Below, piece after piece: positions 17,601 through 18,375 of a stretch of DNA of 64,000 bases. Within the stretch, counting starts at the first letter, position 1, and every line of letters begins with the position of its first letter. The position numbers and the translations under genes are program-made. Under the pieces are notes generated by a model. It did not search any database and was not told where the DNA came from. It worked only from the letters and a program-made list of their open reading frames with translations. The stretch is from Clostridium sp. CAG:302. Its GTDB lineage: Bacteria > Bacillota > Clostridia > Lachnospirales > Lachnospiraceae. The stretch lies in the NCBI GenBank assembly GCA_963657295.1, contig CAVKMX010000001.1:1577-65576 (forward strand), given 5' to 3'.

Positions 17601-18375
17601 AACCCTCCATCTGCATGTGGGCGGGCACCGGAATTTCGTCCCAGCTCCGGCAGTCACAGGAGAGCTTTTCAAAGCCTCTGGGCGCCAGAGATGGATTCAC
17701 GGCATAGTCAAACCGCCACAGTCCGTTCAGGCTGCAGCGAAGCGAGGTTGCCTCCGCCTCCATTTCCTGCCGGGACGCATAGGTGCAATGATCCGAATGG
17801 GCCGGAAGGGCATTGATCTTGAAAATCTCCGGATTCGCTACGACGGTCTCGTCAAAGGTGCCCGCACCGCCCCTTCGCAGAATGAGGCTCTCCAGCCGCA
17901 GACTGTCCATACCCGACTCCGGGAATTCCCGGCTGATCCATGCATCCAGCTCCTCCCGGAAGCCCTCCATGCATTGGTGCAGGAGATTCACCCCGTTGGT
18001 CTTTTCATAATCCATGAGCCTTCTGCGAAACCGCTGCAGCGTGCTCTCCGAAACCGGCTGCACCAGATCGCTTGTTGTATGCAGGGCCGTCTGAAAGCGC
18101 AGGTCACAGGTGCAGTTCTCCACCGCCTTCTCATCGGAAAGCGCAAGGAGCTCCTCCAGCAGCAGCAGCCCCACGGTCACATTGACCGGACCGCTCGGTC
18201 TCGCAGACACCTCGGAATACAGCGGCTGGAAGATTTTCTCCTGAATCTTCGGGAAGATTTCCTCTGCAAAGCTTCCGGCCCACGATCGCTCCAGCCTCCT
18301 GCGCTCCCGTTCATTCAGGAGCACCGATCGATCCCCCAGTCCCAGCTGCTGATAGCTGTTCGATGAAAAAGCCAT
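14647..18375 (-). CDS. GH2 beta-galactosidase (LacZ-type) with N-terminal transposase-derived domain
   Basis: GH2 motifs [50 protein letters not shown]; first ~168 aa resemble the IS1182/IS5-type transposase N-terminus. Confidence 0.92.

Follow-up and report, generated by a model that had tools for sequence, protein, structure and literature searches.

A domesticated transposase N-terminal domain fused to a LacZ-type beta-galactosidase and maintained independently of the enzyme in a Lachnospiraceae genus

Why should a sugar hydrolase begin with a piece of a transposase, and does that piece still do anything of its own? The question is raised by a gene in a 64,000-nucleotide stretch of the Clostridium sp. 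CAG:302 genome (contig CAVKMX010000001.1, positions 1,577 to 65,576), hereafter the window. On its minus strand, a single stop-free reading frame runs from the ATG at 18375 to a stop at 14647 (14647–18375) and encodes a protein of 1242 residues in which a transposase-derived domain is joined to a glycoside hydrolase family 2 (GH2) enzyme, bearing out the first-pass annotation that both lie in one frame. The Pfam model DUF772 (PF05598) matches residues 59–122 (18010–18201) with an E-value of 8.3e-9 and 35.8 bits against a cut-off of 23.1, and all 24 aligned family members match it as well. Residues 173–1242 (14650–17859) have the five-domain LacZ architecture of sugar-binding domain, Ig-like domain, TIM barrel, domain 4 and small chain, and the LacZ-type GH2 model NF052611 matches residues 179–1237 with 1359 bits against a cut-off of 999. 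An NE motif contains E642 (16450–16452) and a CEY motif contains E709 (16249–16251), which we take, from knowledge of the GH2 family, to be the acid/base and the nucleophile, respectively; the nearest solved chains are 6sd0 and 6s6z (E 4e-186). Judged by score and motifs, the moiety is a LacZ-type beta-galactosidase. It shares the full domain set and both catalytic glutamate motifs with other LacZ-type GH2 enzymes, and differs from them in its additional N-terminal transposase domain and in its location outside sugar-uptake operons.

The first 168 residues (17872–18375), an all-helical segment 43–46% identical to the nearest free transposases, had been assigned to the DUF772-type N-terminus of IS1182/IS5 transposases, and profile comparison agrees with this assignment. 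In an HHalign comparison, the domain profile and one built from 35 free transposases match across 179 columns (probability 100, E 4.5e-62), and the alignment has no long gaps over the first ~168 residues. The free relatives combine DUF772 with DDE domains and score highest on the IS1182 model NF033551, yet below its cut-off; the window protein reaches 26.2 bits on this model against a cut-off of 270, and only over residues 46–136 instead of the full length. The source is placed among the IS1182-family (IS5-related) DDE transposases (PF05598 with PF13751/PF01609; NF033551), with which the domain shares the fold core and a relic RMDS motif. In the window protein, the sequence MDS at residues 156–158 (17902–17910) is colinear with the transposase RMDS motif that carries the first catalytic aspartate (here D157), and the captured segment ends just past it, as the first-pass annotation had proposed. 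The RMDS strand is eroded across the fusion family, with R155, M156, M160 and R170 lost. In the fusions, the catalytic strand is lost, while the fold core and a Q-P-x-S-x-R-T-x-x-R-F-R helix are kept. This helix (residues 106–119; 18019–18060) is a putative DNA-contact helix; among 32 domesticated domains, S109 is retained in 32, T112 in 30, R115 in 31, R117 in 32 and R111 in 24. The window strain keeps S109, T112, R115, F116 and R117 as in the free transposases, and D110 and R111 are changed, so that its helix reads S-E-S-T versus S-D-R-T. The transposase-invariant R-P-N (59–61) is eroded in the fusions (R in 15/32, N in 14/32; R-P-S in the window) and K74 is lost. The net charge of −5 in the window domain, compared with −7 and −9 in free transposases, is uninformative.

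In contrast to the IS1182 transposases, the fusion has no RNase H core and no terminal inverted repeats (TIRs), is enzyme-fused and is inherited mostly vertically. The domain is single-copy in each carrier genome rather than multi-copy or mobile, and no free parent transposase was found in the assembly of the window genome. Its composition is host-like (GC 59% and GC3 73%, compared with 60% and 77% in the GH2 part), the window contains no TIR match at up to one mismatch, and none of 47 further loci has an exact TIR in the 4 kb upstream of the fusion, or in whatever part of those 4 kb the locus covers. The description of the segment as intact, host-like in GC and free of IS ends holds. Identity as an IS1182 transposase or element was rejected: there is no DDE core, there are no ends, and the domain is single-copy.

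The ATG at 18375 is preceded by a strong ribosome-binding site (18381–18390; duplex −9.0 kcal/mol). It had been stated that the junction contains no in-frame start and that the enzyme can only be made as a fusion. The former is not strictly right, and the latter is weakened for the window strain, where the relic MDS supplies an in-frame ATG (M156, 17910) ~17 codons ahead of the GH2 part, behind a GGAG Shine–Dalgarno-like element (17917–17920; −6.1 kcal/mol), and internal initiation is possible. The claim fares better among relatives: of 52 homologues, two lacked an anchor, and among the 50 with a locatable junction, 21 have no ATG, GTG or TTG in the linker and only eight have a start with a usable Shine–Dalgarno sequence, so that an internal start is no family trait; the GGAG element is likewise not conserved in the family. 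The linkers of the homologues are 16 to 108 residues long and often of low complexity. In one locus (L028 of genome G033), an exact match to the TIR pattern lies at the domain/GH2 junction, 515 nucleotides past the start codon, and probably arose by chance from the codons of F-D-I-R-I-I. Selection at the codon level, described below, implies that the fusion is translated.

A search of related genomes for the same architecture, which the first-pass annotation had proposed, extends the fusion well beyond the window strain. Among 86 genomes of the genus (67–100% complete, so that a miss is not a proven absence), a profile search matched 51, and 48 carry the domesticated form; of the other three, two contain no more than free or truncated transposases, and the third gave a weak masked hit. 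In 400 other Lachnospiraceae genomes, 23 matched, all with frames of 126–559 residues, too short for the fusion. The titled carrier records are mostly Lachnospiraceae, with the isolate NK3A20 among them, and the same junction recurs in many independent database clusters, one of which has 813 members. The 32 domesticated domains form one clade relative to 36 free transposases (FastTree support 0.98), and all 46 fused GH2 rows fall within one clade of 50 (support 1.0), in which four unfused enzymes are nested. These four are interpreted as domain losses because one of them (L149, G063:C1; ORF start MTLSTYKYDQ) has lost the domain through an in-frame deletion but still begins with a remnant of the domain's first ~10 codons; the GH2 frame of G063 is also broken at an N-gap. 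The enzyme has persisted after domain loss at least twice. Trees of the domain, the GH2 moiety and rpoC from 31 genomes have 7–10 strong splits in common and 1–3 conflicts, and carriers are spread across the deepest splits of the rpoC tree, where the branching order is unresolved (one tree was a quick IQ-TREE tree, the others FastTree trees with local supports). At the level of sequence, these comparisons show that the 5′ part of an IS1182-like transposase gene, comprising all that precedes the RNase H core, and a LacZ-type GH2 gene were fused in frame once, near the base of this Lachnospiraceae genus, and they indicate an old event followed by mostly vertical descent with many losses, perhaps with some horizontal transfer of the fusion. 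Together with purifying selection on the domain, this strongly supports the old co-option, rather than a fresh insertion, that had been suggested from the window.

The genomic context of the fused gene differs from that of its unfused relatives, several of which adjoin ABC sugar-uptake genes and an AraC regulator. The fusion follows housekeeping genes (cls, plsY/NUDIX, deoC or ABC-exporter genes), and no sugar genes are conserved beside the fusion across the loci compared. In the subclade of the window, the conserved upstream neighbor is a cardiolipin-synthase-type PLD gene (cls; 18449–20110, minus strand, start approximate). The gap between the two genes is 73 bp in the window and contains no promoter-like or terminator-like site, and the pair is probably co-transcribed; the best sigma-70-like site upstream of it, by consensus match only, is TACACA-17-TATAAT (20165–20193, minus strand). 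In the 14 loci compared, the non-coding sequence ahead of cls shows no common motif. Three loci (L023, L025, L065) contain REP-like palindromic repeats between cls and the fusion gene, which bear no relation to the TIRs of the IS. In the window, the fusion gene is followed immediately by a GH127 beta-L-arabinofuranosidase gene (12555–14543, minus strand), which is not a conserved neighbor in relatives. Another minus-strand reading frame of the window (10406–11947) encodes a tandem acidic repeat with a ~13-residue unit (EEEQNGMETSDLP-like, about seven copies), followed by a domain that by eye resembles a serine-hydrolase/beta-lactamase-like fold.

The strength of selection on the domain was compared with that on the enzyme by Nei–Gojobori pairwise estimates (not a branch model), dN/dS on the domain having been named as a check in the first-pass annotation. 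For residues 1–145 of the domain, dN/dS is 0.016–0.106 in 12 non-overlapping pairs of close relatives, rising to as much as 0.29 in more distant pairs. It is below the GH2 value in 10 of the 12 pairs and about equal in two, with 0.106 versus 0.100 in the pair that includes the window, and the pooled pN/pS is 0.09 for the domain versus 0.17 for GH2.

Both catalytic glutamates are kept in 43 of 48 carriers, and one further copy is cut by a contig end. Three enzyme-less states occur in one subclade, whose proteins start MALSTY. Two genomes (G013 and G026) have the same in-frame deletion, which removes the part of the barrel bearing both catalytic glutamates and leaves a protein of ~1360 residues, and each carries another LacZ-type gene; between the two, dN/dS is 0.057 in the domain versus 0.30 in the dead body (p 1e-5), and the dead form is stable, with a 65-member cluster. 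Sister to it is a short form of 308–362 residues, in which the domain is followed by a repeat linker and a single Ig-like fold, with no TIM barrel; it may represent continued erosion of the dead form. In 25 complete clusters of the short form (31 short hits minus three with a differing shorter end, one with an indel and two of other origin), variation affects 7 of 150 sites in the domain, versus 49 of 120 in the Ig tail (p 1e-13), and lengths and linkers vary only in steps of nine residues. The short form (L078/P0061 and relatives) carries fixed D81N and R117H substitutions at otherwise invariant sites, perhaps a compensatory pair. The third state, in G017, is a stand-alone domain of 181 residues (8-member cluster), which occupies the syntenic position with every trace of GH2 gone; its one non-synonymous versus two synonymous differences are too few to address selection after the loss. 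The forms of the fusion span a size series of 1242–1540 residues (active), ~1360 residues (dead), 308–362 residues and 181 residues. The domain is thus shown, by comparison of genes, to have a host-selected function of its own that is separable from the enzyme, because it is under purifying selection as strong as that on the enzyme and persists without it. Domestication with an enzyme-independent function is regarded as very probable.

What this function might be is suggested by the position of the captured piece within the parent transposase. The domain was modeled as a helical bundle (pLDDT 81). No solved structure matched the domain alone (best Foldseek E 0.69; best VIA-align Z 4.2), the best E-value in a PDB sequence search with the domain was 0.032, and a search of the ESM Atlas returned DUF772/InsH-N clusters only (0.85–0.86). 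The AF2 model of a free parent (pLDDT 88) places the first catalytic strand at residues 154–163 and aligns with Tn5–DNA complexes over 270 residues (Z 15.2, rmsd 4.2–4.3; residues 30–527 with Tn5 4–372) and with piggyBac (Z 12.2; residues 28–531 with 127–495; Foldseek E 6.6e-4), and bare integrase cores align from residue ~150 of the model; these structural alignments give end points only, and not which helix touches DNA. The N-terminal domain of Tn5 transposase binds the transposon end. In piggyBac, residues 117–263 are part of the dimerization and DNA-binding domain, contacting TIR base pairs 7–16, according to the available text of PMC7351741. By structure, the captured piece would stand in the position of the end-binding and dimerization domains of Tn5 and piggyBac, and we infer that it derives from the pre-catalytic, end-binding region of the transposase.

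In the proposed mechanism, the domain would be a catalytically dead transposon-end-binding, and possibly dimerizing, module that occupies the TIRs of the parent family (ATGATG-N5-GTCAAAA) on IS copies and on miniature elements (MITEs). Such occupancy would damp transposition, in the manner of the P-element KP and 66-kDa repressors, and the bound domain might also affect genes adjoining TIR ends. The GH2 body would then be mainly an expressed, possibly oligomeric carrier and not a sensor of sugars. According to the available text of PMC8477213, higher concentrations are needed for an isolated N-terminal fragment of the IS26 transposase to bind its own TIR; by analogy, and speculatively, avidity could be gained from a GH2 carrier if this is oligomeric. 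That the domain serves as a dead binder directed to the inverted repeats of its parent family is put at an even chance of being correct. A broader version is held more tentatively: a bacterial transposase capture in which a dead IS-end binder, with sites spread by the MITEs of the family, became either a standing IS defense or a novel transcription factor whose regulon was already in place, and is being released stepwise from its enzyme carrier.

The distribution of candidate target sites was compared with that of the domain. Free elements of the parent family share the end ATGATG-N5-GTCAAAA, and free transposases that are 53–83% identical in the domain region share one TIR consensus. Across the 14 genomes belonging to the clade in which the domain outlives the enzyme, the median number of exact TIRs is 12, whereas the 34 other carriers and the 38 non-carriers both have a median of 1; nine or more are present in 9/14, 3/34 and 1/38 genomes, respectively (0–2 in a reversed-pattern control); this association amounts to one contrast at the level of a clade, without independent replication, metagenome-derived assemblies count repeats unevenly, and the TIR-rich genomes tend to be larger. 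There are exceptions, with four or fewer TIRs in five of the 14 clade genomes, 30 in G072 and 19 in the non-carrier G030. No matching excess of IS3-type integrases was seen in the TIR-rich clade when counts were compared by eye as a control. The TIR-rich subclade keeps R59 and N61 (RRNVPVN). Many of the TIR matches are ends of MITEs with IS1182-like TIRs, and those examined are 184–259 bp long (L134:383–566, L135:334–564, L136:309–492, L137:342–594, L138:109–359 and L139:362–620). Their interiors contain long inverted repeats, and they are flanked by AT-rich target duplications, read by eye as 7–12 bp long with AT at both ends; MITE-bearing genomes contain up to 78 TIR matches each, and no Rfam match was found for the MITEs. 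A more distant IS of the same family, with a 561-residue transposase and differing ends (ATGATTCACCTTTCAAAAG-like), is present in G075 in three identical copies (L073:1730–3698).

The window genome presents a different picture, with one exact TIR match, which lies inside a coding region. It has 20 TIR-like sites at 15 bits or more, versus 2–9 in column-shuffled controls; of 12 inspected, most are inside long ORFs, and the sites were treated as background, with the exception of one on contig C164 that may be a decayed end. An autoregulatory TIR upstream of the fusion gene was not found in a PWM scan of 72 upstream regions, which gave two high scores, one from a truncated free transposase (L129) and the second probably from another such row, with the rest at 10.9 bits or less. 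TIR occupancy is not the whole story in the window genome, because a single exact TIR coexists with a domain dN/dS that is still 0.106; the target may have drifted in this lineage, where the repeats are nearly absent and the R-P-N motif is eroded. Further observations count against an end-binder: a repressor might be expected to lower the MITE load, yet a high load accompanies the domain, and the short form has the fixed R117H and D81N substitutions, while a separate capture in Lacrimispora is conserved with an acidic helix. PADLOC returned no match.

The Lacrimispora protein bears on the most serious rival, in which the domain was domesticated as a protein-interaction, oligomerization or localization module, or as a binder of a new non-IS nucleic-acid target, and lost TIR binding at least in the clade of the window. 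In Lacrimispora, the same N-terminus (about 270 residues) is attached to a predicted membrane anchor, a hydrophobic segment recognized by eye, and four polysaccharide-deacetylase domains (P0161 and P0233–P0235, e.g., WP_024294127.1; four clusters, 90 members). Residues 10–150 are 85–95% identical between these clusters, and the capture is, on comparison of the sequences, independent of the GH2 fusion. The N-terminus is the best-conserved part of this protein, even though its S-x-R-T-x-x-R helix reads N-E-K-E-x-x-S. A role other than TIR binding would also fit the low dN/dS (about 0.03–0.11) in the clade of the window, where genomes have almost no TIRs and R-P-N is eroded, and the dimerization reported for the equivalent piggyBac domain in the available text of PMC7351741. 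However, the GH2 fusions retain exactly the helix residues that the Lacrimispora fusion has lost, linkers of such variable length and low complexity argue against a fixed interface with the enzyme, and the domain persists alone in G017. This rival is considered unlikely, if still a serious candidate. The first-pass annotation had raised the possibility of a trigger enzyme, in which GH2 would sense or process a galactoside and control DNA binding by the attached domain. Retention of both glutamates in most carriers, the departure of the fused gene from the AraC/ABC context and the residual constraint on the dead body (dN/dS 0.30) are compatible with such a regulator. Obligatory coupling of sugar and DNA is argued against because the domain is conserved in lineages without an active site (dN/dS about 0.06 after the loss of catalysis), including those that have lost most or all of the enzyme; the enzyme, in turn, has outlasted the domain, and neither conserved sugar genes beside the fusion nor a shared motif upstream of cls was found. 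The idea is weakened by these independent losses and is now judged improbable, and retention of the domain can be explained without it.

Simpler explanations fare worse still. The segment could have supplied only a promoter-linked translation start, which was the alternative offered in the first-pass annotation, with its conservation a by-product of selection against a misfolded passenger. The strong Shine–Dalgarno sequences ahead of the domain's ATG, and the viable outcome in G063, where a remnant of ~10 codons stands ahead of GH2, would suit this explanation, but constraint over the whole 145-codon domain equals or exceeds that on the enzyme in 10 of 12 pairs, and the domain survives where no enzyme remains to be started. 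Because the domain outlives the enzyme and active enzymes lose the domain, the two are separable modules, and a role as start donor only is rejected as the reason for retention; the residual probability assigned to it is slight. An assembly chimera or a recent IS insertion in one strain has a practically negligible probability. The window genome is an incomplete assembly (83.5%), but the same junction is found in 48 genomes of the genus, in dozens of independent assemblies and in the independent clusters mentioned above, IS ends are absent, composition is host-like and selection is purifying, which disposes of both the chimeric junction and the neutrally evolving, strain-limited fusion that had been raised as doubts.

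Host capture of transposase DNA-binding domains is a recognized source of new regulators in vertebrates, and like host–transposase fusions in general, the window gene is in frame, has orthologs in several species and is under purifying selection in the captured domain. In the vertebrate KRAB–transposase fusions such as KRABINER, the DNA-binding region of a transposase was captured by a host gene, as described in the available text of 10.1101/2020.05.07.082677. The present fusion resembles these cases in its in-frame capture by a host gene and in the dispersal of cognate repeats in some host genomes, and differs from KRABINER as described there in being bacterial and formed without splicing, in having a glycosidase instead of a repressor domain as partner, and in that binding is putative here. 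With the P-element KP and 66-kDa repressors, it shares a truncated, N-terminal DNA-binding part (putative here) and the absence of catalysis; whereas those repressors, in the available text of PMC7776569, are encoded by elements or their deleted copies, the fusion is a fixed chromosomal host gene derived from another transposase family. The documented bacterial domestications found are whole HUH transposases, the RAYTs (TnpA-REP), which, as far as the available texts of PMC5581495 and PMC8266576 describe them, are likewise single-copy, housekeeping-like and vertically inherited, with their presence associated with abundant short repeats. RAYTs are, however, whole active HUH enzymes flanked by REPs, while the fusion contains a non-catalytic DDE fragment that is enzyme-fused and not repeat-flanked. 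Membership in the RAYT/TnpA-REP group was rejected, as no HUH family match was found in the domain and DUF772 is of DDE origin. Among the reports found, the closest bacterial fusion is one of isochorismatase, a host enzyme, with the IS1182-family transposase of IS1272, found as one IS copy in two related strains; in the available text of PMC5678879, the host part precedes a transposase that is still described as an IS copy, and no evidence of long-term selection is given.

No published description of a DUF772–GH2 fusion was found in the literature that could be searched, which left subscription journals mostly uncovered, and domain or CAZyme tables of rumen genomes could list the architecture; in the parts available, PMC8700633, PMC11894529 and 10.64898/2026.08.24.746577 do not concern this gene. 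The present case is a non-catalytic DDE-transposase domain under strong selection across a bacterial genus, together with a natural series in which the active fusion gives way first to a dead enzyme and then to the domain on its own. With a candidate target sequence at hand and a carrier in culture, the idea that bacteria gain transposon repressors or transcription factors by transposase capture becomes directly testable. If the end-binder proposal is correct, it would provide a function for DUF772, which is structurally uncharacterized and labeled as a transposase remnant in databases, and if the broader capture proposal is true, the IS1182/IS5 N-terminal domain would be a module that bacteria have captured repeatedly. 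Four small clusters (P0152, P0138, P0181 and P0063) contain further diverged, DDE-less versions of the transposase N-terminus, which are possible further captures or chimeras; P0063 is of the domesticated type by sequence and has an unrelated C-terminus.
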